A stretch of 64,000 nucleotides of DNA from Acidobacteriota bacterium (lineage in GTDB: Bacteria; Acidobacteriota; Vicinamibacteria; Fen-336). Made by a program: the position numbers and the translations under genes. Positions 1,191 to 64,000 of the stretch are shown here, piece by piece. Each line of letters opens with the position of its first letter. The first letter of the stretch is position 1. Below the pieces are notes generated by a model. It ran no database searches. It saw only the letters and a program-made list of their open reading frames with translations, and had not been told where the DNA came from. Location of the stretch: assembly GCA_032127875.1 (NCBI GenBank), contig JAQBHI010000158.1:4626-68625 (forward strand). The letters are read 5' to 3'.

Positions 1191-3572
1191 TCACTTGATG
1201 ATCCGGGGCGTGATGAACAGCAGCAGTTCGTTGTTGGAGGTCGTGACGAAGCGGTTGCGGAACAGATACCCGAGCAGCGGGATCTTCGAGAGGAACGGCG
1301 TCGATTGCTGAGCGGTCTGCTCGTTGCTCTGGTAGATACCGCCGATCACGGTCGTCGCGCCGTCCCGGACCAGCACGTTGGTCTTGGCGGCCTGCGTGTT
1401 GATCGGCGGGATGCCGTTGACCAGGTTGGCGAAGTCAGCCGTGTTGTTTTGCACGTCGATGTTGAGAATGACGGTATTCGCCTCCGTGATCTGGGGCGTC
1501 ACCTTGAGCGTCAGCGTCGCATTCTTGAACTGGACCGTAACCGTGTTGTTGGCGACGGTCTGGATCGGAATCTGGACGCCCTGCTCGATCGTGGCCTCCT
1601 GGTTGTTCTGAGTGGTGACCTTGGGTGTCGAGAGCAGGCGCCCGCGGCCCTGACGCTCGAGCGCCGTGAGCGCCGCGTCCAGGTTGAAGTTGCCCAGCAG
1701 GTTACCCAGCGACACTCCGATCGCTGAGTTGAAGCCCGTCGCCGGGAGGTTGATCGCGTAACCGCGGCTGGCCGTCCCGATGCCCGCGCTCGAGGCGACG
1801 CCTGCCTGGTTCGCAGGCAGGCCGCCGCCAGGGACACCCTGCCCGTTCAGGACGATCGAGTGCGGGAAACCCTGGGTGGTCGTGGTGGCGAACTGGGGCG
1901 TCTGCTGGTTCAGGAAGCCCCACTGGATGCCGAGATCGCGCGTGAAGTTCCGGTTCGTGACGACGATCCGCGCCTCGATCTCGACCTGGGGCGTGGCGCG
2001 ATCGAGGTCCGCAATGAGGTCCTTCGCCTTCTCGATGTTGGCGGCGAGGTCGGTGATGATCATCGTGTTGGTGCGGGTGTCGAGCGTGATGGTGCCGCGG
2101 GCGGAGAGCGCCACCTTGCGGATCGTCGGTTCCATTTCCGCTGCCTTCGCGTAGGAGAGCGGCTTCCGCCAGACGATCGTTTCGCCGGCCAGCGCCTGCT
2201 CTTCCTTGAGCTTGCGCAGATCGCTCTCTTCCTTCTGGAGGTCGGAGAGGCGTGCGATGCGGATTACGTTGCCGTCGATCGTCTTGCCGAGCCCGTTGGT
2301 CTTCAGGATCAGGTCGAGCGCCTGGTCCCAAGGCAACTCGACCAGTTTGAGCGTCACCTTGCCGCCGACGCCCGGGTTGACGACGACGTTCAGGCCGCTG
2401 ATGTCGGCGAAGAGTCGGAAGATGTCCTGGAGGTCGCCGTCCTTGAAGTCGAGGCTGATCGGATGGCCAGTGTAGACCTTCTCCGCGGGCCCGACGGTGC
2501 GGGCCTCGAAGATCTCTTTCGACGGCATCTGCGGCTCTGGCAGGGGCGGCAGCGCCAGTGCGGGGATGGCCTGGGTGGCGGCCGCCTTCACCGCTGCCAG
2601 CGGGGCGACGATGGCGGGGGCGGACGCGGGGGCCGGCTCGGAAAGGGCCTCGGCGCGCAGCGCGGCCAGCGGAGCCGGGCTGGGCGCGTGGCCCTCGCCG
2701 AACACGATCTTCAGGCCGTCGCGCCCCTCGACCACCCGGTAGGGCGCTCGCGAGGAGAGGTCCAGCACGAGCCGCGCCACCTTGGGCGAGGCCGCGCTGA
2801 ACTGGGCGATCCGCACCCTGCGAACGGGGCCCTGGGCCACGTCCATCTGCTTCAGGGGCACCCGGCTCGTCACGTCCTTGAAATCGACGACCAAGCGGTC
2901 CGGGTTGCCCAGGAAAAAGTCCTGATAGCGGAGCGCGCCGTCGGCCGTGACGGTAATCGCCAGATTGCCATCCTCGTGGCTCTGAGCTACGCCCAGGATG
3001 CGCGTGGCCGGGCGGGAGGCGGTCCGCACTGGCTCCGGTTGGCGAGTGGGCGCTTCGACCACCTCGGCCGACGCTGCCGGCTCGGCCGCTGGCAACGCCG
3101 CCGTCTCCACGACTGGCGCGCTCTCCACGAGCTGCGCGGGGAGCGGTGCCCCGACTGCAAGCTGCGCCGGTCGCTCGAAGACGAGATTCAGGCTCTTGTC
3201 CTTGGAGTAGATCTGATACGGGACCAGGCTGGCGAGCCTCACCTCTATGCGCGTGAGGCTGCGGCCGTCTGCGCGCGCCAGGGCGGTAACGCGCAACGAC
3301 TCGACCTCATGCGAACCCACGTTGATGCGGGACGGAACCTTCGAGGCATCCACCTCTGGGATATCCACCACCAGCGTGAGCGGGTCGGGGCTGTAGTAGG
3401 TGTAAGCCAGGGGTCCGCTCGACTCGATCGAGAGACGAGTCGACCGCTCGGTGGTCTCCTGGCGAATGTCGGAGATCATCGTTGCGGCGCGGTCCTGCGC
3501 TGACGCGGGCGTCCCGGTCGTGGCCAGGACGAAGGCCGTCGCCAGGATCGCCCAAGTGAGCTTGGCCCTCAT
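1191..3572 (-). CDS. pilQ: Type IV pilus secretin PilQ.
   Basis: 793 aa with a signal peptide, AMIN-like N-terminal repeats and a secretin C-terminal domain ending ...NNELLLFITPRIIK. It is the last gene of pilMNOPQ. Confidence 0.9.
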   Translation of the reverse strand: MRAKLTWAILATAFVLATTGTPASAQDRAATMISDIRQETTERSTRLSIESSGPLAYTYYSPDPLTLVVDIPEVDASKVPSRINVGSHEVESLRVTALARADGRSLTRIEVRLASLVPYQIYSKDKSLNLVFERPAQLAVGAPLPAQLVESAPVVETAALPAAEPAASAEVVEAPTRQPEPVRTASRPATRILGVAQSHEDGNLAITVTADGALRYQDFFLGNPDRLVVDFKDVTSRVPLKQMDVAQGPVRRVRIAQFSAASPKVARLVLDLSSRAPYRVVEGRDGLKIVFGEGHAPSPAPLAALRAEALSEPAPASAPAIVAPLAAVKAAATQAIPALALPPLPEPQMPSKEIFEARTVGPAEKVYTGHPISLDFKDGDLQDIFRLFADISGLNVVVNPGVGGKVTLKLVELPWDQALDLILKTNGLGKTIDGNVIRIARLSDLQKEESDLRKLKEEQALAGETIVWRKPLSYAKAAEMEPTIRKVALSARGTITLDTRTNTMIITDLAANIEKAKDLIADLDRATPQVEIEARIVVTNRNFTRDLGIQWGFLNQQTPQFATTTTQGFPHSIVLNGQGVPGGGLPANQAGVASSAGIGTASRGYAINLPATGFNSAIGVSLGNLLGNFNLDAALTALERQGRGRLLSTPKVTTQNNQEATIEQGVQIPIQTVANNTVTVQFKNATLTLKVTPQITEANTVILNIDVQNNTADFANLVNGIPPINTQAAKTNVLVRDGATTVIGGIYQSNEQTAQQSTPFLSKIPLLGYLFRNRFVTTSNNELLLFITPRIIK

Positions 3573-6602: not shown

Positions 6603-6689
6603 GAGGAAAATTAGGGGCTTGCGACTAAGTGAGCGTCAACACAGGAGTCCCCTACTTATGGTGCCGTCCGAAAACGCGCACCACATTCC

Positions 6690-7658
6690 CTAGAACCGGA
6701 TCTTGACCCCCGGATCGTCCTTCGCGTGGATCGTGTCGACGAAGCGGACCTGGTGGGGCACGGTCATCATCAAGAGGCTGTGGGTCCGAATCCCGTCGCC
6801 GAAGAAACGCACGCCCTTCAGCAGCGTTCCATCGGTCACTCCGGCCGCGGCGAAGATCACGTTCTTGCCGGGTGCCAGTTCCTCGGTCTGGTACACCTTG
6901 TTGAGGTCGACGATGCCCATCTTCTTGAGCCGATCGGCGTCGGACGGCTTGGTGAGCACCAGCTTCGCCTGGATCTCGCCGTTGAGGCAGCGCATGGCCG
7001 CCGCCGTGAGCACGCCCTCGGGCGCGCCGCCGGTTCCCATCACGGCGTGGACGCCGGTGCCGACGACCGAAGCTGTGATGCCGGCCGAGAGGTCGCCGTC
7101 GCCGATCAGGCGGATGCGCGCACCGCACTTGCGGATCTCGGCGATCAGCCTCTCATGGCGCGGACGATCCAGGACGATCACCACCAGGTCGTGGACGTCG
7201 CGACCGAGGGCCTTCGCGATGGCCTTCAGGTTGTCCTCCACGGGCGCGTTGATGTCGACCTGCCCTTTCGACGAGGGACCGACGACCAGCTTGTCCATGT
7301 AGATGTCCGGGGCGTGAAGCAGGCCGCCTTTTTCCGACGCCGCGAGCACCGCGATGGCATTGGCCGCGCCGGTGGCGCACAGGTTCGTGCCCTCGAGCGG
7401 GTCGACGGCGATATCCACGGGCACGCTGCCCGCCTTGCCGACTTTCTCGCCGATGAACAGCATCGGCGCCTCGTCTCGCTCGCCTTCGCCGATGACGATG
7501 GTGCCGTCGATGTCGACGGTCTCCATTTCCTTGCGCATCGACTCGACGGCCACCTGGTCCGAGTACTTGCGGTCTCCCTGGCCCATGGTGCGGGCGGCGG
7601 CGATGGCCGCCTGTTCCACCACCCTCACGAACTCCATCGACAGGTCGTCACGATGCAT
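6690..7658 (-). CDS. glpX: Fructose-1,6-bisphosphatase class II.
   Basis: Conserved GlpX blocks are present: [35 protein letters not shown] and [10 protein letters not shown]. Confidence 0.9.
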
Positions 7659-7690
7659 CGAGCGGCTCCTCCAGGTTTGTCAGGAAATTC

Positions 7691-8893
7691 CTAGCGGCGA
7701 TATGCGGGAAGCTCCACGCGCCTGGGCCTGTCCTGCCGGAAGCCCAGGGCGTAGTCGGCCTGCATCAGCTTGTGGATCTCCCGGGTGCCCTCGTAGATGA
7801 CGGCGGCCTTGGCGTTGCGAAAGAAACGGCCGGCCGGATACTCGTCGGAGTAGCCGTTGCCGCCGTGGATCTGGACGCAGTCCGACGCCGCGCGCTCGCT
7901 CTTCACGGTGGCAAACCACTTGGCGAGCGAGGTCTCGCGGGTGTTGCGCTTGCCTATGTTCTTGAGCCAGCCGGCGCGCAGCCACAGCAGGCGCGCCGCG
8001 TCGTAGTCGGAGACCATCTCGGCGATCATCTCCTTGACCAGCTGGTGTTCGCCGATCGCGACCCCGAAGGTCTTGCGCTGCTTCGCGTAGGCGACCGAGG
8101 CGTCGAGGCAGGCGCGGATCAAGCCGGTGGCGCCGGCGGCGACCGTGTAGCGGCCGCTCTCCAGGGCGAACATGGCGATGCGGAAACCCTCGCCCTCCTT
8201 GCCTAGCAGGTTCTCGGCTGGAACTTCGAGATCAGCCATGTGGAAGCCCCCCGTGTTGCCGGCGAGGATCCCCCATTTCTCTTTCATCGGGTAGGAACTA
8301 AAGCCCTTGAAGGCGCGCTCCACGATGAAGGCGCTGAGCCCGCTGTGGTCGCGCTTCTTCTTCTTCTCCTGGTCGGTCCAGGCGACCACGAGGAAATTGT
8401 CAGCGACGTCGGCAAGGCTGATCCAGGTCTTTTCCCCGTTCAGCACGTAGCGGTCGCCCTTCTTCAAAGCACTCGTCTGGATCCCGACGGCGTCGGAGCC
8501 GGCGTTTGGCTCGGTCAGGCCGTAGCTCGCGATCTTCTCGCCCCTTGCCTGCGGAGCCAGGTACTTCCGCTTCTGCTCCTCGGAGCCCCAGCACCATAGG
8601 CTCATGCAGTTGAGGCCTACGTGCACCGACATGATCACGCGCAGGTGGGTGTCGACGTACTCGAGCTCCTCGGAGACGAGCCCCAAGCTCAGGTAGTCCA
8701 TGCCCGCCCCGCCGTATTCCTCGGGAATGCAGATCCCGAGCAGCTGCAACTCGGCCATCCCCTTGAGGAATCCGCGCTCGAAGCGATGGGCGCGGTCGAG
8801 CTCGTGGATCTTCGGGGCCACTTCCTTCGCGGCCCAGTCGCGCACCATCTTTTCGACGGCGAGGTGCTCTTCCGACAACTCGAAATCGATCAC
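7691..8893 (-). CDS. Acyl-CoA dehydrogenase.
   Basis: 400 aa. ACAD motifs include [10 protein letters not shown], a YxxxGxK-like region, the FAD-binding middle domain and the C-terminal IYEGT. Confidence 0.9.
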
Positions 8894-58111: not shown

Positions 58112-58842
58112 GCTGCAATCCCGAGCTCGTCACCGGCTACGTGGACGCCGCGCTCGACGACGCGGCCCGCGCCGAGGTCGAGGCGCACCTGGCGGAATGT
58201 GCGGTCTGCCGCGAGCAGGCGGAGGCCGAGAGGCAGCTGCGCGCCGCGCTGCGCACGCTGCCCGCGGCCGAGCCCCGCCGGGGCTTCGAGGCCGATTTAC
58301 GCCGGTCGCTGCTGCGCGCTCGACCCTCGCCCCTGCGCATGTTGCTGCCGATCGCTGCAGTGCTGGTCCTGGCTTTCTTCGGGGGCCTGCGGCTGCCGGG
58401 CGTGCTGGCCTGGGAGCTAGCACGCGATCACAAGAACTGCTTTGGTCAGGAATCCCTGCCCGCCGAGGTCTGGGGTGGCGACGCCGCGGTGATCGTCCGC
58501 TGGTTCGAGGCCCATGGCACGAGCCTGCCTCCGATCCCCGACGGCGCCGGTGGCCTGAGCCTGGTGGGCGGGCGTCGCTGCCCGCTCGTCGATCGATCCG
58601 TCGCGCACCTGTTCTATGCCGCGGGCAAGCGGCGCGTTTCGCTCTTCGTAGTACCCGGCTCCGTGGCGCTGAGCGACCGCTACCAGACCACGGCGCGCCA
58701 CGAGGCGGTTCGCATCTTCCAGGTCGCGGGCCAGCTAGTGGGCGTGGTCGGCGAAAATGAAGACGATGTGCGCGCCTTCGAGCGTAGCTTTCGTTCGACC
58801 AGCGCCTCGACGAGCCGCGAGGCTGGCGAGCCGGAGGTTTGA
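58108..58842 (+). CDS. Anti-sigma factor (zinc-finger type, membrane-spanning).
   Basis: The GTG overlaps the sigma-gene TGA. HLAECAVCREQ is an HxxxCxxC motif. One TM helix (LLPIAAVLVLAFFGG). Confidence 0.7.
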   Translation: MSCNPELVTGYVDAALDDAARAEVEAHLAECAVCREQAEAERQLRAALRTLPAAEPRRGFEADLRRSLLRARPSPLRMLLPIAAVLVLAFFGGLRLPGVLAWELARDHKNCFGQESLPAEVWGGDAAVIVRWFEAHGTSLPPIPDGAGGLSLVGGRRCPLVDRSVAHLFYAAGKRRVSLFVVPGSVALSDRYQTTARHEAVRIFQVAGQLVGVVGENEDDVRAFERSFRSTSASTSREAGEPEV

Positions 58843-58882
58843 CCCGCAGCGCGCGCCTTGATAGCATCGCGTTTTCTCGCCG

Positions 58883-58959
58883 TGGGGCTGTAGCGCAGTT
58901 GGGAGCGCGCGTGAATGGCATTCACGAGGTCAGGGGTTCGATCCCCCTCAGCTCCACCA
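58883..58959 (+). tRNA. tRNA-Ala (anticodon GGC).
   Basis: Cloverleaf: acceptor GGGGCTG/CAGCTCC with a G3:U70 pair, D-arm GCGC-AGTTGGGA-GCGC, anticodon stem CGTGA/TCACG with loop ATGGCAT, T-arm AGGGG-TTCGATC-CCCCT, discriminator A then CCA. Confidence 0.9.
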
Positions 58960-59085
58960 ACTCCAGCAATGATTTAGCGAGACAGGGAATCGGCGAGGCG
59001 GCCGATTTGTCCATTTCTTGTCCATCCTGGCGCGAACACCGTGAAACCGTGCGGGACGTCTTGGAATCAAGGGCCTGACTCAAGC

Positions 59086-60528
59086 CTACGCTCGGGGCGT
59101 CTTCAAGCAGCCCGACGCGCACGGGTTACCATCCGCCGGCCGCGACGAGCTACTGCGAGAAGCTCTCGTCAGGTTTGCACTCGGCCTCTCTAGGCCAGAG
59201 TGCGCACATGTACGAGATGCTGGGCCAGAAAGAGCGCGACCAGCTGCACGCACAAGACCGCCGAGGCACTCTGGGAGCGAGCTACACCAGGTCCCAGTCC
59301 TTCGACACACCACGGAGCAGCTTGGCCACGTGGTTTGATCCTCCCAAGCCTCGGGGAGTCTCTCCATGAGCAAGTCGTAAACGCCCACGGGTGGTGGTGG
59401 GGCCTGCACGACCGCGTCTTCGGTCAGGACACCTGCCGGAACGTCTTCGCCGAGCACACTGGCCGGTCCCGCCGTGAGCCACAGGCTTCCTGCCTTCACG
59501 GCCTCACGGAGGGCGCTATCGAGAGCGGCGGCGTCGGCCTTCGGGATGCGGACCGGCTCGTCGTACCCGCCCTTCTTGACCTTCACGATTCGGTCACCGG
59601 AGAAGTAGCTACGAAGGTCCTTCACTCGCAGCTCGGGACCGGCCCAGAGGTCGGGGAGCGCGCCGGGTAGCAGCAGAGCCGGCGCCACATCGGATAGCGT
59701 GGCGGCTTCGGGCAGTACGAACTCGAGCCCGGGGTCCTTCAGGTCGGCCTCATCCGGCTCCTGCCGCCAGAGGGTTCGGACGCTCCGATCGGGCCGGGTC
59801 ACGCGCAGGACAAAGTGGCCCTTCCGGCAGCCCAACACGATCGTGTCGAGGATCGCCGAGCGGCTGAGCATCTTGGGGAGATGCGGGAACTGCGCGAACG
59901 CGCCGACGAGGTCCTTCACGCGCCGCGACGTCTCGCCCTCACGCCACAGGTCGTAAGGACCCCCGGGCAACAACGCGTCGGCACTGACTGCGGTCTCCTG
60001 GATCCGGCTGCGCGCATCCCCCTTGATCGTCGTGAACAGAGGGTAGTCGCCGGCCGTGACCTTGAAGGCCTGCACCTCGTTCTTGTCCGAAACCGTCACC
60101 ACCACGCAGTAAGCTTGCCGGATACCCGCGAACACGCGCTTCCGGGCCGTATCAAGGTTCGCCAGAAGTGTCGCTTCGCGGATCGGATCGAGATCCCCGC
60201 GTTCGAGCTGGCTTCTCACCTCTTCCCAGGCGAGGTAATCGCGGATGGCGCCGCGGGTCACGTCGAGCGCCTCTCGCGAGGGAACAGCCAGGACGACGGC
60301 GTTTCGATAGACGCGCGGCCGATCGGCGCCGGTCGTCTCTTCGAGGAACCGACGAGCCTCGGCGTTGGGCTTGCCCGTCTCCGAGGCCGCCTTCGGCCCA
60401 AGGACGGCGAAGTGGAACTCGCCGTCGTCCTCGATGTTGCGCGGCTTCTCAGGGAGGTTGTGGACTCGGGCTCCCGCCGGGCCTGCTCCCACCGTGAGGC
60501 TCTTGAGCTTCCCGATCTCGTCGAGCAC
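59086..60528 (-). CDS. Uncharacterised 480-aa protein, the first gene of the tRNA-Ala island. A C-terminal frameshift is possible.
   Basis: The GTG start at 60528 has an AT-rich divergent intergenic region upstream. There is no signal peptide and no recognisable motif. The last ~90 aa are low-complexity S/R/C/G. The adjacent frame ends ...HVAKLLRGVSKDWDLV* at 59282, suggesting a frameshift near 59340. Confidence 0.55.
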   Translation of the reverse strand: MLDEIGKLKSLTVGAGPAGARVHNLPEKPRNIEDDGEFHFAVLGPKAASETGKPNAEARRFLEETTGADRPRVYRNAVVLAVPSREALDVTRGAIRDYLAWEEVRSQLERGDLDPIREATLLANLDTARKRVFAGIRQAYCVVVTVSDKNEVQAFKVTAGDYPLFTTIKGDARSRIQETAVSADALLPGGPYDLWREGETSRRVKDLVGAFAQFPHLPKMLSRSAILDTIVLGCRKGHFVLRVTRPDRSVRTLWRQEPDEADLKDPGLEFVLPEAATLSDVAPALLLPGALPDLWAGPELRVKDLRSYFSGDRIVKVKKGGYDEPVRIPKADAAALDSALREAVKAGSLWLTAGPASVLGEDVPAGVLTEDAVVQAPPPPVGVYDLLMERLPEAWEDQTTWPSCSVVCRRTGTWCSSLPECLGGLVRAAGRALSGPASRTCAHSGLERPSANLTRASRSSSSRPADGNPCASGCLKTPRA

Positions 60529-60607
60529 CTTCGCCTCGAGTCGGTCCTACGGGATTTCCTGGACAGGATCATTGTCTGAATATACACTGTTGTCCTGACT
60601 GGGCAAC

Positions 60608-61657
60608 ATGCTATCTAGCGACAACGAACTAGTCCGGCTTGCTGCGGAGGAAATTGGCCGACTCCTGCCGCTAGGCTGGCGAATCGAGGGGAGCGCCATA
60701 GAGCCGCGAAATTCCGCCGTTGACGGACGAGCCTTCATCGTCGCCCCCGACGGCCGACGCGCCATCGTGCTTATCGAAGCGAAACGCAGTCTCGACCCGC
60801 GCGGAGCGAGCGAACTGGCGAGGCGCCTCGGGATAGAACTGCCTGGCGAGGCCGTCATCGTGGTGTCGCCTTACCTGGCTGCCAGCGTTCGTGATCGGCT
60901 CAAAGCGTCCGGCCTCGGCTACGTCGACTTAACCGGCAATGCGCGCCTGACACTCAGCAGCCCTGGCTTACATCTCGAAACCACCGGGGCCGATTCCGAC
61001 CCCAACCCTTCCCTGCGCCCGACCCGTTCCCTACGTGGACCCAAGGCCGGCAGAGTTGTTCGGGTCCTGTGTGACTCGCGGGAGCCGGGCGGCGTCAGAG
61101 ATCTCGCCGCCAAGACTGGCCTTGATCCGGGCTATGTGTCCAGGATCCTCGCGTTGCTCGATCGGGAGGATCTCGTCGAGCGAGACCCGCGAGGTCGCAT
61201 CCTCAAGGTCGAGTGGGAACGGCTCCTTCGGCGCTGGGCGCAAGACGTGCCGTTCGAGAACCGCGGCCAGGCATCCTCATACTTGGAACCCCGCGGCTTG
61301 CCGGCTCTGCTCGAACGACTCCCGCAGAGCCGACTGCGCTACGTCATTACGGGTTCACTCGCCGCCTCCAGGCTGGCGCCAATTGCACCGCCGCGACTGG
61401 CCACCCTTTGCGTGGAGAGCCTCGATCGCGCTGCCGAGGAATGGAGCCTTCGCCCGGCCGAGGCCGGTGGCAACGTCGTGCTCGTCCTGCCGACCGACGA
61501 CTGGGTCTTCGCGGGTGCCGGGGAGGTTGCGGCAATCAAGTATGCCGCTCCGAGTCAGGTGGCGGCCGATCTGCTGACGAGCCCAGGGCGCGGGCCGGCC
61601 GAGGCTGAGGAACTATTCCGCTGGATGACGGCGAACGAGGAGAAGTGGCGTGGATGA
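60608..61657 (+). CDS. AbiEi-like putative antitoxin/regulator: an N-terminal PD-(D/E)xK-like region and a central winged HTH.
   Basis: …VAPDGRRAIVLIEAKRSLD reads as a D..E.K nuclease-like motif. The wHTH is GVRDLAAKTGLDPGYVSRILALLDREDLVERD. Its 3' end overlaps the downstream nucleotidyltransferase gene by 8 nt. Confidence 0.5.
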   Translation: MLSSDNELVRLAAEEIGRLLPLGWRIEGSAIEPRNSAVDGRAFIVAPDGRRAIVLIEAKRSLDPRGASELARRLGIELPGEAVIVVSPYLAASVRDRLKASGLGYVDLTGNARLTLSSPGLHLETTGADSDPNPSLRPTRSLRGPKAGRVVRVLCDSREPGGVRDLAAKTGLDPGYVSRILALLDREDLVERDPRGRILKVEWERLLRRWAQDVPFENRGQASSYLEPRGLPALLERLPQSRLRYVITGSLAASRLAPIAPPRLATLCVESLDRAAEEWSLRPAEAGGNVVLVLPTDDWVFAGAGEVAAIKYAAPSQVAADLLTSPGRGPAEAEELFRWMTANEEKWRG

Positions 61658-62477
61658 ACTTTACGTTCTGGCCAGGAGCGTCCTGCTCGATGCCCTGGAA
61701 GCCTTGGGTCCGCACCGGCAGGCATGCGTGCTTGTCGGAGCCCAGGCTATCTATCTGAGAGTCGGCGAAGCGGACCTCGCCGTAGCGCCATTCACGACGG
61801 ACGGGGATCTCGTCATTGATCCGCGCCGTCTTTCAGACGCGCCGCCCATCGAAAGGGGTCTCCTGGCAGCGGGGTTCGAACTCAGGGGTGGAGACAGCGT
61901 AGGGATTTGGGTGACACGACGGGAGACACACAGCCACGCCGACGTCGAGGTCGCGGTCGACATGCTGGTGCCCGAAGCCGTCAGTCCGGGATCTGGGCGA
62001 AGGGCAGCCAAACTCCAAGGCCATGAGCCACGTGCCGCGAGAATCGCGCGCGGATTGGAGGCGGTCCTTTTCGACGCTGACTTGATGCGGGTAGCTGCCC
62101 TCAGCGATTCGGACGCGCGTGGCTTTGATGTCAGCGTGGCCGGCCCTGCAGCCCTTCTGGTCTCGAAGCTCCACAAGATCGCCGACCGAGCCGGCTCTCC
62201 GCGCGCCAAGGACAAGGACGCCTACGACGTGTTGCGCCTTCTTCGCGGCACGACTGCCGCTGAGATGGCGACCCGAGTTCGCCGGTTTCGCGCTGAGCCG
62301 CTCAGCAAGGCAGTGACAGTCGAAGCGCTGGGTCTTCTGGGCTCTTTCTTCGGACGGGCCGACGGAGTCGGGTCCCAGATGGCCGTCCGAGCCGCGCGCG
62401 GGTTGGCCGACGCGCAGGAAATTGCGGTGTCCTGCGTGGCTCTCGCCGAGGAGATGCTTGACGCGCTTCGTGACTGA
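61650..62477 (+). CDS. AbiEii/DUF1814-family nucleotidyltransferase (putative type IV TA / abortive-infection toxin).
   Basis: The nucleotidyltransferase-fold motif is VGAQAIYLRVGEADLAVAPFTTDGDLVID (G[GS] then DxD). The C-terminal block ...LLVSKLHKIADRAGSPRAKDKDAYDVLRLL matches the family. Confidence 0.65.
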   Translation: MDELYVLARSVLLDALEALGPHRQACVLVGAQAIYLRVGEADLAVAPFTTDGDLVIDPRRLSDAPPIERGLLAAGFELRGGDSVGIWVTRRETHSHADVEVAVDMLVPEAVSPGSGRRAAKLQGHEPRAARIARGLEAVLFDADLMRVAALSDSDARGFDVSVAGPAALLVSKLHKIADRAGSPRAKDKDAYDVLRLLRGTTAAEMATRVRRFRAEPLSKAVTVEALGLLGSFFGRADGVGSQMAVRAARGLADAQEIAVSCVALAEEMLDALRD

Positions 62478-62754
62478 TCTTCCTACCACGCTATGCCTGT
62501 CGCGGCGCCCGACAGCCTTAGCCGGCGCTTCACCGAGGCCGTCTTGGGGACGGGCTCAAGGGCGTCCGCGTCCCGAATGAATCCTCCGGAAGCGGCAGCG
62601 TGACGGACCAGGCCTTGCGCGTCTCCCGGCGCGCCCGGCCCTTCTGGAGGTGTTTACCGCCGTTCGTCAGCCATGCAAGAGCCTGCTCCGGCTTGGCGGC
62701 CGATCGGCTGCTGCTGAAGATGGTCCGTTGGCCACGGCACAGCCCGGGGCCCAA

Positions 62755-62810
62755 GAGAATGGCATTCACGGGATCACGGGTTCATCCCGTCAGCCCTCGG
62801 TGGCTCCAGC
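62755..62810 (+). repeat. Degenerate direct repeat of the tRNA-Ala 3' half (putative decayed att site).
   Basis: GAATGGCATTCACG is identical to tRNA positions about 58914-58927. It is followed by GGATCACGGGTTCATCCCGTCAGC, compared with the tRNA's AGGTCAGGGGTTCGATCCCCCTCAGC. Confidence 0.6.
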
Positions 62811-62851
62811 GGGCCCGCCCGAACGGTGCGGTCGTGGTGGGGCCACGCCAC

Positions 62852-62883
62852 TTGACCCCGGTGGTATGTCGGGGTCATACTAT
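62852..62883 (+). promoter_or_regulatory. Promoter with an overlapping inverted-repeat operator upstream of mazE.
   Basis: TTGACC (62852-62857), a spacer, then CATACT/TACTAT as the -10. A perfect 7-bp inverted repeat GACCCCG…CGGGGTC spans the spacer. The ATG follows about 6 nt after the -10 region. Confidence 0.35.
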
Positions 62884-62887
62884 TTTC

Positions 62888-63124
62888 ATGAAGGTGGCAG
62901 TTTCCATACCCGATCCGATCTTTCGTGAAGCGGAGCGGATCTCCCGCCGCATCCGGGTGCCTCGCAGCCAGTTCTACGCCCATGCCCTCGAGGCCTACGT
63001 GCGCGAGCGATCTGGCGAAGACGTCACGGAGCAGCTCAACGAGGTCTACGCAAGGAGCTCGGCGAAACTCGATCCCGCCACTGAAGCGCTCTCACTCGAG
63101 ATCCTGAGGCGGGAGAAGTGGTAG
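62888..63124 (+). CDS. mazE: MazE/PemI-like antitoxin.
   Basis: 78 aa. MKVAVSIPDPIFREAERISRRIRVPRSQFYAHALEAYV has the SpoVT/AbrB-like antitoxin pattern. It overlaps the mazF start by 7 nt. The track ORF is trimmed. Confidence 0.65.
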   Translation: MKVAVSIPDPIFREAERISRRIRVPRSQFYAHALEAYVRERSGEDVTEQLNEVYARSSAKLDPATEALSLEILRREKW

Positions 63125-63462
63125 CCCGGCGCGGCGAGATCTGGTGGACGGATTTCGGGCAGCCATTTGGATCGGAGCCGGCCTACCGCCGGCCGGCGCT
63201 GCTTATTCAGGCGGACGCGTTCAATCGGAGCTCGATTGCGACGGTTCTCCTGATCCCGCTCACGAGAACCGTCGCCCTGGCCTCAGCGCCGGGCAACGTC
63301 TTGTGCCGTCCCCGCGATACCGGGCTGCCGAAGCCGTCCGTGGTGAACGTCTCACAACTCACCGTCGCGGACCGGCGGAGGCTCATCGAGAAGGCGGGAG
63401 CTTTGCCGGGACGACTCCTGAAACAAGTGGAAGACGGCCTGCGACTCGTGCTCGAGCTCTGA
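63118..63462 (+). CDS. mazF: MazF/PemK-family endoribonuclease toxin.
   Basis: GEIWWTDFGQPFGSEPAYRRPALLIQ...IATVLLIPLT...APGNV...VNVSQLTVADRRRL is the canonical PemK/MazF sequence. 114 aa. Confidence 0.85.
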   Translation: MVARRGEIWWTDFGQPFGSEPAYRRPALLIQADAFNRSSIATVLLIPLTRTVALASAPGNVLCRPRDTGLPKPSVVNVSQLTVADRRRLIEKAGALPGRLLKQVEDGLRLVLEL

Positions 63463-63529
63463 TTCTCCCGCCCGGCGTGGCGAGGCCCACGAAAGCCTCG
63501 TCCACGCCCGCTGGATCCAGGCCCGCGGC

Positions 63530-64000
63530 CGACGCTGTGACCGCCTACGCGGGCTTGATGTTCTGGTTGACCAGCGCGTGTTGCAGCGCGATCCGGCCGG
63601 GGCGTACGCGAGCATGGATTTCCTGAGTCGCGACCGCTACCGCCAGGCCGTGGAGAGCGGACACTCGGCGGATCGCGCCGCCCACGTCGGCCACCACCCT
63701 CATCGGCAAGGGCCGCCCCGACCTCGAGACGGACGTCGCCTATCGTCCTCGCCTGGACCGGCGGGCGCGACGGTTCCTCTTCGCCCATGTGACCGCTGTC
63801 TACCTCGGGTTGATCGGGCTCGTGACGGCCCTCATCCTGAGCCTCGGGGTCAGCTACCTCAACGGGCAGGGCGCATCAGCCTGGGTCTTCGGCCGGCGCC
63901 GCGCTCCTGTTGTTGCTGCCGGCCAGCGAGGTGGCAATCGGCCTCGTCCAGCGCCTGGTTGTCCGTTGGGCACCACCGCGACGCCTCCCCCGCCTCGAGT
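63530..64000 (+). pseudogene. 5'-truncated, frameshifted fragment of a large membrane glycosyltransferase-like gene (possibly cyclic-glucan-synthase/NdvB-like). It runs off the right edge.
   Basis: Protein-like sequence continues across three different frames: …VLVDQRVLQRDPAGAYASMDFLSRDRYRQAVE…, then …RRFLFAHVTAVYLGLIGLVTALILSLGVSYLNGQ…, then …ALLLLLPASEVAIGLVQRLV…. No start codon or N-terminal region is present. Confidence 0.4.

Follow-up and report, generated by a model that had tools for sequence, protein, structure and literature searches.

A probable doubly truncated hmaC relic in a decayed tRNA-Ala cassette

Introduction

Does the 480-aa open reading frame (ORF) at 59086..60528 on the minus strand of the 64-kb window (the whole stretch of DNA analysed here) encode a new phage-defence protein, or is it the remnant of a known one? 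The first-pass annotation had read it as an uncharacterised defence component leading a system, with a possible C-terminal frameshift or incipient pseudogenisation. Its start codon is GTG, and it lies, as described there, next to tRNA-Ala(GGC) and Abi/TA-type genes, here a divergent pair encoding a helix-turn-helix (HTH) protein and a nucleotidyltransferase (Table 1). We conclude that the ORF is very probably a doubly truncated relic of hmaC, most likely inactive, in a decayed tRNA-linked cassette that carries no integrase.

Table 1 Features of the locus and the evidence for each, in window coordinates.
Feature	Position	Strand	Evidence or remark
tRNA-Ala(GGC), integration target and left cassette boundary	58884..58959	+	ARAGORN; Rfam tRNA 63.3 bits
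Read-through tail of the ORF, S/R/C/G-rich	59086..59328	-	Unlike the family; GC1/2/3 not coding-like
Terminator-like hairpin with T-rich tail	59234..59251	-	31 nt past the alternate-frame stop
Alternate frame, 18 codons and stop (SNHVAKLLRGVSKDWDLV)	59282..59338	-	Possible ancestral extreme C-terminus of HmaC
Retained internal hmaC (DUF499 ATPase) segment	59329..60546	-	tblastn, PADLOC, alignments, AF2 pLDDT 92.6, coding-like GC1/2/3
AT-richer junction/spacer where hmaC homology ends	60547..60607	.	GC 0.48; opens with an in-frame TAG
349-aa winged-HTH protein (IclR/MarR-like), first gene of the pair	60608..61657	+	Pfam HTH_IclR E=1.2e-7, residues 146-194
275-aa nucleotidyltransferase-like protein (AbiEii/NTP_transf_8-like)	61650..62477	+	Below Pfam thresholds
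Decayed direct repeat of tRNA-Ala positions 30-69, right boundary	62757..62794	+	Repeat search (family D1), alignment

Results

The ORF belongs by sequence to the HmaC/DUF499 family

Pfam and NCBIfam searches of the ORF returned no match, and PADLOC alone recognised it, its HmaC profile matching at E=3e-10 (ORF residues 20-237 against profile positions 545-771 of 941). The missing Pfam DUF499 match is explained by the profile, the matching part of which falls in the N-terminal half that is absent here. When full-length HmaC was searched against the window by tblastn, only 59329-60546 aligned, with HmaC residues ~552-958, numbered on the 1,104-aa protein of Desulfofundulus thermobenzoicus (L036), at E=1e-151 to 1e-178 and 60-63% identity. 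Homologues of the ORF were found in the hundreds at 50-66% identity, and residues 1-406 were 60-66% identical to the matching part of many HmaC proteins. The similarity to the HmaC/DUF499 family is significant and, judged by its sequence, the ORF is a member of this already known family of the Hma, or Type-1 BREX-related, system. The earlier view of the protein as uncharacterised and novel therefore does not hold, and the PADLOC search proposed in the first-pass annotation leads to a known defence family; the ORF is defence-related by ancestry, but not a new defence component.

HmaC is the family at the centre of the Type-1 DUF499-centred BREX-related system (PADLOC PDLC00662), in which it acts with the SNF2 helicase-nuclease HmaA and the DUF1156 N6-adenine methylase HmaB (PMC12839542; PMC11232893). 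The protein is a DUF499 (PF04465) AAA+ ATPase of ORC/Cdc6 type and about 1,100 aa (PMC12839542; PMC11232893), and DUF499 proteins of this tripartite system are ordered as AAA+, wHTH/alpha+beta/wHTH, more wHTH and a C-terminal RRM (PMC12839542). Accounts of the family, the system and its likely role date from 2021 to 2026 (PADLOC Hma; PMC11232893; PMC12839542; the MANTIS preprint for a sister subtype).

Intact relatives are far longer than the window copy

In the family cluster, which covered 82 loci, 68 of the 85 ORFs were at least 1,085 aa long (median 1,105 aa), and only ~37% of HmaC is present in the window copy. Relative to the part matched in the window, full-length relatives carry ~550-610 extra N-terminal and ~135-155 extra C-terminal residues, and 67 of the 68 have a Walker A motif (GK[ST]H) within the first 200 aa. 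They matched PADLOC HmaC at 1e-74 to 1e-76 and Pfam DUF499 at 1e-15 to 2e-18. The neighbourhood comparison suggested in the first-pass annotation showed that they occur in hmaA-hmaB-hmaC operons, with hmaB and hmaA usually upstream of hmaC; neighbouring genes matched HmaB at 5e-116 and HmaA at 3e-165 (SNF2 and NOV_C domains), and a methylase cluster of ~1,010 aa was present at 57 loci.

A natural family of ~560 aa, starting at MHxDAC, was first suggested by a protein homologue search that returned proteins of up to 737 aa, which was the size ceiling of that search (1.75 times the query length). This family was rejected: the contigs show full-length genes that are frameshifted or split by IS elements, and the genome loci give ORFs of ~1,100 aa.

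The 3' end is lost and replaced by a read-through tail

Homology with every relative ends at 59329 (...LPEAWEDQTT), and the matches in all of the 80 best genome loci finish at query residues 401-412. About 145 C-terminal family residues are absent from the ORF. The conserved C-terminal wHTH and RRM/ferredoxin-like domain were not found: an HMM of the family C-terminus saw its first 16 positions in the ORF frame and gave zero signal past ...AWEDQTT. The following 74-80 codons have the composition of non-coding DNA (GC1/2/3 of 0.56/0.78/0.59), and no homologue keeps such a low-complexity tail in frame. The degenerate ending had been rightly noticed. An in-frame alignment of the tail to the family wHTH, produced by MAFFT and BLAST, was discarded, as neither the HMM search nor the composition supports it. 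The tail most likely arises from a change of frame.

The alternate frame that had been pointed out is also present, ending in HVAKLLRGVSKDWDLV with a stop at 59282, and its composition is coding-like (GC1/2/3 of 0.63/0.32/0.84). It aligned with positions 145-161 of the 162-position HMM at -2.3 bits only, and with a tail-only HMM it ranked second of three weak matches in the whole window, the two chance matches elsewhere scoring comparably. In an end-alignment test, which is non-independent, its best ungapped match coincided exactly with the terminus in 9 of 68 homologues; shuffled peptides averaged 0.5, although one shuffle reached 29. These comparisons are suggestive of the ending LLRGVSKDWDLV being the last 17 codons of the ancestral gene, although they are not statistically significant alone; such an origin would imply an internal out-of-frame deletion of ~400 bp. 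One terminator-like site was found, with 1.2 expected by chance, and no coding signal was detected in 58960-59281.

The ending bears directly on the proposal that the ORF encodes an entire new defence protein of unknown family, in which a frameshift of one base near 59340 is the sole defect and whose true product of ~415 aa would end in ...DWDLV. In favour of it, the alternate-frame ending is present, has a coding-like composition and is similar to the last residues of the family. However, the family is the known HmaC/DUF499, and its members have ~550 residues upstream and ~145 residues between ...AWxxxxTT and the terminal ...LLxxVSxxLxL, so that a correction of one nucleotide fails to restore the protein. 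We consider this explanation scarcely credible. The 3' end is indeed damaged, as had been suspected, but by the loss of ~145 codons and not by a shift of 1 nt.

The 5' end, the ATPase half and the partner genes are missing

An in-frame TAG at 60547-60549 blocks 5' extension of the ORF, and family homology begins right after it, at ...DRLEAKVLDEI. Some tblastn alignments run past the TAG to 60606, but this apparent upstream homology was dismissed as over-extension with almost zero identities. The ORF is also short of ~550 N-terminal residues, so its GTG falls on a Val/Leu codon inside the ancestral gene. The HmaC N-terminus gave no tblastn match at E<0.05 in the 64-kb window, and the ORF contains no GK[ST] motif of a Walker A. 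Compared with HmaC, the window copy has neither the Walker A ORC/Cdc6-type ATPase nor the first wHTH at one end, and at the other it is missing the final wHTH together with the RRM-like domain.

The partner genes of the Hma system are missing from the window as well: HmaA and HmaB queries from three or four genomes had no tblastn match at E<0.05 in the 64 kb, and neither gene was found in the 1.2-10 kb past the window end or in a related metagenome-assembled genome (MAG; GCA_964442185.1). Contrary to what had been supposed, the ORF accordingly does not lead a system here. Since the examined stretch is 64 kb, the genome may carry an intact hmaABC elsewhere.

Between the ORF and the divergent pair lies a spacer of 79 bp (60529-60607) with a GC content of 52%, against 67.5% for the window, in line with the AT-rich region of about 80 bp described earlier. 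It holds promoter-like divergent hexamers at 60606-60579(-) and 60560-60588(+), promoter-like sites being found three times in the scanned region with 0.2 expected, and an SD-like GAGG stands 5 nt upstream of the GTG. From its sequence, the ORF could be expressed from the site at 60606-60579 and the GAGG.

The two genes of the AbiE-like pair overlap by 8 nt. The 349-aa product is a generic IclR/MarR wHTH protein with no AbiEi match; the 275-aa product scored 23.2 bits with Pfam NTP_transf_8 (cut-off 26.3) and 21.1 bits with AbiEii (cut-off 22.5), and had no PADLOC or NCBIfam match. Gene insertions concentrate at hma loci, which are hot spots (PMC11232893). A derivation of the window pair from the AbiE-like pairs or inserts of hma operons (L004, L029) was ruled out, the genes not being homologous.

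The retained segment is well preserved

The segment that remains encodes the post-ATPase alpha+beta and winged-helix-like modules, and its conserved body has a coding-like composition (GC1/2/3 of 0.73/0.47/0.81). Its 406 codons show no interruption and no visible degradation. Seven of 132 highly conserved positions are broken, with a median of four in intact relatives, and at least seven are broken in 20 of the 68 intact relatives as well. The unbroken codons indicate that either the truncation is recent or the segment is still under constraint. The AF2 model predicts a confident fold for the fragment taken alone.

These features could be those of a functional stand-alone protein, in which the alpha+beta/wHTH sensing or scaffold part of HmaC, expressed from the spacer promoter, could serve as a regulator, as a decoy for phage anti-defence proteins or as a modulator of an Hma/BREX-related system elsewhere. 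The 406 intact codons, conserved-site changes that are not in excess, the confident predicted fold and the promoter-like and SD-like signals upstream fit such a protein, as does an orphan 3' half in another genome (L002), which starts at residue 531 in a defence-rich neighbourhood. However, an orphan half occurs at no locus among the 80 best in the genomes; wherever the flank suffices, the copy is full-length or split. The inspected database proteins of ~550-567 aa represent parts of full-length genes broken by frameshifts or IS elements. The window copy also lacks the conserved C-terminal wHTH and RRM and ends in 74 junk codons, and therefore resembles decay, not domestication. The L002 half retains its C-terminus, and the two are thus different products. 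We regard a stand-alone function as unlikely, and it is quite improbable that the post-ATPase part of HmaC persists and is expressed alone after Hma loss, with the window and L002 copies as a recurrent, selectable by-product. A relic of hmaC remains our preferred reading, and the earlier guess of pseudogenisation was fair as regards the damaged 3' end, but what decays is an internal fragment (residues ~552-958 of ~1,100) and not a near-complete protein.

The probable relic lies in a decayed tRNA-linked cassette

The direct repeat downstream of the AbiE-like pair spans the anticodon loop to the T-arm of tRNA-Ala and is an att-type remnant. Its local alignment score with the tRNA was 46, against a mean of 23.2 (sd 2.4, maximum 36) in 500 shuffles. 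Rfam found only the intact tRNA over 58700-64000, the repeat being too decayed to score. Homology between the window and a contig of the related MAG (L087) starts at 62737, and sister repeats in L087 and L089 are better preserved, covering tRNA positions 28-76. The 3.85-kb cassette contains the hmaC fragment and the HTH/nucleotidyltransferase pair; no integrase or recombinase domain was found in its genes or in the Pfam lists of the neighbouring cassettes.

The arrangement is that of decayed tRNA-integrated islands with tandem att repeats: an intact tRNA-Ala, then cargo, then the tRNA 3' half repeated in direct orientation, with further repeats and different cargo downstream and in the related MAG. 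The locus differs from such islands in that the 3.85-kb cassette has no integrase, and in that its cassettes, at 2-4 kb, are unusually small and have TA/defence remnants as their sole cargo. The locus is a decayed integrative island in which cassettes accumulated in tandem.

The contig is derived from a metagenome, and P0001 occurs in Logan and, at NCBI, on a single contig of 68,749 nt, so the break points might be artefacts of assembly or binning (chimera, collapse) in an organism that has an intact hmaC. We find this very improbable. A Logan contig built separately from run ERR5010721 matches 58948-60789 with 100% identity, both junctions and the tail included, and two further Logan contigs (L088 and L089) confirm the AbiE-like/MazEF side. 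The cassette moreover has a tRNA at one boundary and a repeat derived from it at the other, which is what a natural island would show.

Discussion

From the two break points we infer the following deletion mechanism and order of events for the hmaC relic. On the 5' side, the ATPase-encoding half would have been lost at the junction 60541-60549 along with hmaB and hmaA; the AbiE-like divergent pair now abuts this junction. On the 3' side, the last ~145 codons, with the conserved wHTH and the RRM-like domain, are missing, most likely through an internal deletion of ~400 bp that altered the frame. Translation would then pass the old stop at 59282 and continue to 59086. Without the ATPase, the C-terminal sensor domain and the methylase and nuclease partners, the product would be unable to act as HmaC, and the 480-aa protein is most likely inactive.

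How intact HmaC may act is best modelled at present by MtsA of the MANTIS system (Gao_RL/Type-2 BR), to which it is likened by architecture and not by sequence. MtsA loads a methyltransferase onto DNA and is required for restriction (bioRxiv 10.64898/2026.09.23.753747). MtsA and BrxC of BREX share the DUF499/BrxC-like design with an N-terminal AAA+ domain and a flexible multi-domain tail, and the window fragment would correspond to the 'tail' that the MtsA structure does not resolve. The subtypes differ: a DUF3780/DUF3870-type partner and a PLD helicase-nuclease characterise Type 2, while an SNF2 and NOV_C helicase and a DUF1156 methylase accompany the relatives of the window copy.

For annotation, the 'hypothetical protein' becomes an hmaC pseudogene fragment, to be counted neither as a defence system nor as a candidate novel effector. 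Were the post-ATPase part a selectable by-product of Hma loss after all, it might serve, for example, as a decoy for phage inhibitors or as a modulator of related BREX-like systems. The locus offers an example of turnover, in which defence islands at tRNA genes accrete cassettes between repeats of the tRNA 3' half; the integrases of these cassettes are lost, and pieces of large defence genes remain.

The ORF is a fragment of hmaC

The 480-aa ORF with its GTG start, which the first-pass annotation regarded as uncharacterised and a candidate novel defence component, was present as described, together with the adjacent tRNA-Ala(GGC) (table). Searches with the ORF found no match in Pfam and NCBIfam, and the PADLOC library of defence profiles matched it to HmaC, an AAA+ ATPase (E=3e-10), so that its supposed novelty was not upheld. 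ORF residues 20-237 aligned to positions 545-771 of the 941-position profile, which showed that the ORF matches the back half of a far longer protein.

Hundreds of relatives at 50-66% identity were found by protein search. Among the matches listed, none was longer than 737 aa, or 1.75 times the 421-aa query, which suggested that a length filter probably concealed the full-length relatives (~1,100 aa); such a list is enriched in fragments and could mislead on the natural length of the family. A genome scan with one genome per species gave 579 confirmed matches. In the best 80 loci from these matches the homologous reading frame was consistently ~1,100-1,170 aa (68 of the 85 family-cluster ORFs at least 1,085 aa, median 1,105), with ~550-610 residues ahead of the position aligned with ORF residue 1 and ~135-155 beyond the point, at query residues 401-412, where the alignment ends. 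Full-length examples matched PADLOC HmaC at 1e-74 to 1e-76, contained a Pfam DUF499 match at residues ~184-378, and had upstream genes encoding HmaB, a DUF1156 adenine methylase (5e-116), and HmaA, an SNF2 helicase with a NOV_C/DUF3883 nuclease-like end (3e-165). By sequence, the relatives of the ORF belong to the Hma system (Payne et al.), of which HmaA was tested experimentally in Halomonas (PMC11232893), and which a 2026 paper described anew under the name Type-1 'DUF499-centred BREX-related' system (PMC12839542). The ORF is what remains of one gene of this already known defence system.

Features of the window region and of compared contigs
Feature	Source	Coordinates (strand)	Remarks
tRNA-Ala(GGC)	window	58884-58959	
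Integrase-less cassette	window	58960-62794	3.85 kb
ORF	window	59086-60528 (-)	480 aa
Terminator-like hairpin	window	59251-59234	after alternate-frame ending
HmaC homology	window	59329-60546	residues ~552-958 of the 1,104-aa HmaC of Desulfofundulus thermobenzoicus (L036)
Spacer	window	60529-60607	79 bp
In-frame TAG	window	60547-60549	six codons 5' of the GTG
AbiE-like pair	window	60608-62477 (+)	overlapping genes
AbiE-like pair, gene 1	window		349 aa; IclR/MarR-type winged helix (Pfam)
AbiE-like pair, gene 2	window		275 aa; nucleotidyltransferase-like, slightly below Pfam cut-offs for NTP_transf_8 and AbiEii
tRNA-Ala repeat	window	62757-62794	38 nt
MazE-like (RHH/CopG-type)	window	start near 62893	next cassette
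MazF/PemK	window	63118-63462	next cassette; Pfam 2.7e-24
tRNA-Ala repeat copy	L089, same genome	2036-2082	about 0.9 kb past window end; 45/47 identical
tRNA-Ala repeat copies	L087, related MAG GCA_964442185.1	841-877; 2371-2420	
Orphan hmaC half	L002, GCA_964510315.1	9971-11680	residues 531-1103; ATG start at MHHEAC
AbiEii (with DUF6922) pairs and transposases	L083, hma locus	86-772; 1382-3469	pairs between hmaA and hmaB
AbiEii (with DUF6922) pairs and transposases	L084, hma locus	330-1321; 6676-7914	pairs between hmaA and hmaB

Missing parts and break points

When full-length HmaC was compared with the whole window by tblastn, only the segment within and just ahead of the ORF was matched. HmaA, HmaB and the N-terminal half of HmaC had no tblastn match at E<0.05 within the 64-kb window, and none was found directly past the window end or in the related MAG. 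The Walker A motif GK[ST]H was found in 67 of 68 full-length relatives, within their first 200 residues, and not in the ORF.

On the 5' side, real homology starts at ...DRLEAKVLDEI, immediately past an in-frame TAG that allows no further 5' extension of the ORF, and the GTG 'start' is thus a Val/Leu codon from the interior of the ancestral gene. Some alignments seemed to reach 60606, but this extra stretch had almost no identities and was rejected. On the 3' side, homology stops at ...LPEAWEDQTT. Past that point, relatives have a strongly conserved wHTH-like stretch (TTALA..ALS.K.G..LPW.TVR.AIDGA...WPCD) and then end RRM-like (...QDLAD...ELGG...N.LL..VS..L.L*). The in-frame tail of the ORF, low in complexity as had been noticed, contained neither, and only the first 16 positions of an HMM of the family C-terminal region were recovered in its frame. 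Its codon-position GC was 0.56/0.78/0.59, compared with 0.73/0.47/0.81 for the conserved body, which indicated that the tail is not coding-like.

An alternate-frame ending (...HVAKLLRGVSKDWDLV*), also correctly reported before, lies on the same strand as the homology break and starts within a few bases of it. Its 18 codons (SNHVAKLLRGVSKDWDLV*) aligned to positions 145-161 of the 162-position HMM, the family C-terminus, with the stop coinciding with the HMM's end, at only -2.3 bits; a tail-only HMM gave two similarly weak matches elsewhere in the window. In 9 of 68 relatives the best ungapped match had its end exactly aligned, against a shuffled-peptide mean of 0.5; non-independence of the relatives let one shuffle reach 29. 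The codon-position GC of this ending was coding-like (0.63/0.32/0.84), and a terminator-like hairpin follows it. Given its position, end-alignment, GC and hairpin, we prefer a deletion inside the gene, of roughly 130 codons and one or two further bases, to a 3' truncation with unrelated sequence in its place. Such a deletion would put the last ~17 codons directly after ...TT in a different frame, and translation would thereby pass the old stop (59282) and run on to 59086. About 145 residues are lost under either reading, and the single-base frameshift suggested in the first-pass annotation does not hold.

The separately assembled Logan contig L086 (run ERR5010721, 1,842 nt) was 100% identical to window positions 58948-60789, covering both break points, the ORF tail and the first part of the AbiE-like gene, which argues against an assembler-specific chimera. 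Further Logan contigs agreed with the window on the downstream side.

The fragment as a probable relic

Several features could suggest that the fragment keeps a stand-alone function. Its 406 retained codons are uninterrupted, and 7 of 132 highly conserved positions are broken, compared with a median of 4 in intact relatives and at least 7 in 20 of the 68. The retained segment has a high-confidence predicted fold (pLDDT 92.6, pTM 0.82), a promoter-like site lies within the spacer, GAGG is located 5 nt ahead of the GTG, and an orphan hmaC 3' half, starting at residue 531 and with an intact C-terminus, is present in one further genome (L002). However, there was no orphan hmaC half in the best 80 genome loci from the 579 matches, the ~550-567-aa database entries inspected were pieces of split full-length genes, and the window copy additionally lacks the conserved C-terminal domains and ends in junk. 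We therefore consider a retained function very improbable, and the simplest reading is that the fragment is a recent, non-functional relic.

In the predicted secondary structure, a long helical hairpin forms part of an alpha+beta module, and winged-helix-like units come after this module. These modules are consistent with the published DUF499 architecture, in which an N-terminal ORC/Cdc6-type AAA+ ATPase and a wHTH / alpha+beta / wHTH triad are followed by more wHTH domains and a hypervariable C-terminal RRM-like domain (PMC12839542); we infer the domain labels, since Foldseek with the fragment model returned no solved structure at E<0.01.

In L002, no hmaA or hmaB lies near the orphan half. 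The genes on either side of it encode a 585-aa ADP-ribosylglycohydrolase protein and a DUF4365 protein, and HepT/MNT and a serine recombinase also occur in the surroundings.

A cassette array at tRNA-Ala

The spacer, rightly described earlier as AT-rich and divergent (52% GC, and 48% from 60547 onward, vs 67.5% in the window), parts the ORF from the AbiE-like pair. This pair had no PADLOC match, its generic IclR/MarR wHTH partner is without an AbiEi domain, and it showed no detectable homology to the inserts tested from loci L004 and L029. It is a divergent HTH and nucleotidyltransferase module of uncertain family.

Beyond the pair, a short segment is a repeat of tRNA-Ala from position 30, in the anticodon loop, to position 69, in the T-arm (local alignment score 46; 500 shuffles, mean 23.2, maximum 36), and was no longer scored as a tRNA by Rfam. 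The better-preserved copies all begin in the anticodon loop and reach the CCA end. Homology with the related MAG begins at 62737, the edge of the repeat. Upstream of the equivalent point in the MAG, a VapBC-like pair replaces the hmaC fragment and the AbiE-like pair, and an additional 4 kb with PemK, Fic and PIN genes is found farther on; the cassette content thus differs between the two genomes. The repeats and this comparison place the fragment in one of several small cassettes that have accumulated in tandem at tRNA-Ala. The cassettes are 2-4 kb, integrase-less, bounded by tRNA-Ala(GGC) 3'-half repeats, and carry toxin-antitoxin genes or defence remnants. The MazE-like and MazF/PemK genes of the next cassette form a toxin-antitoxin pair, and a second PemK pair was observed past the window end (Logan contigs L088 and L089).

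In such arrays, breakage of large defence genes would be expected. Inserted genes occur in two thirds of hma loci (PMC11232893), and DDE transposases (IS elements) split hmaB in L083 and hmaC in L084. Together with the AbiEii pairs in these loci, this suggested that Hma operons often harbour AbiE-type modules and IS elements. In the 726-aa JGI metagenome protein P0088, the HmaB N-terminal DUF1156 motif runs in frame into the last ~650 aa of HmaC, as if a deletion had fused hmaB with hmaC.

In intact Hma, the DUF1156 methylase marks host DNA and the SNF2 helicase-nuclease restricts unmodified DNA (PMC12839542; PMC11232893). The DUF499 ATPase would act as an ATP-dependent scaffold or switch engaging DNA and methylase, by analogy with the sister protein MtsA of the Type-2 system MANTIS, for which such a role was shown (bioRxiv 10.64898/2026.09.23.753747). 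Without the ATPase machinery and its partners, the window product would be unable to perform this mechanism. The earlier observations were largely accurate, but the interpretation given to them, a new defence component that might carry a frameshift, was not; we suggest annotating the ORF as the remnant of an hmaC pseudogene (DUF499 ATPase) within a decayed island at tRNA-Ala.
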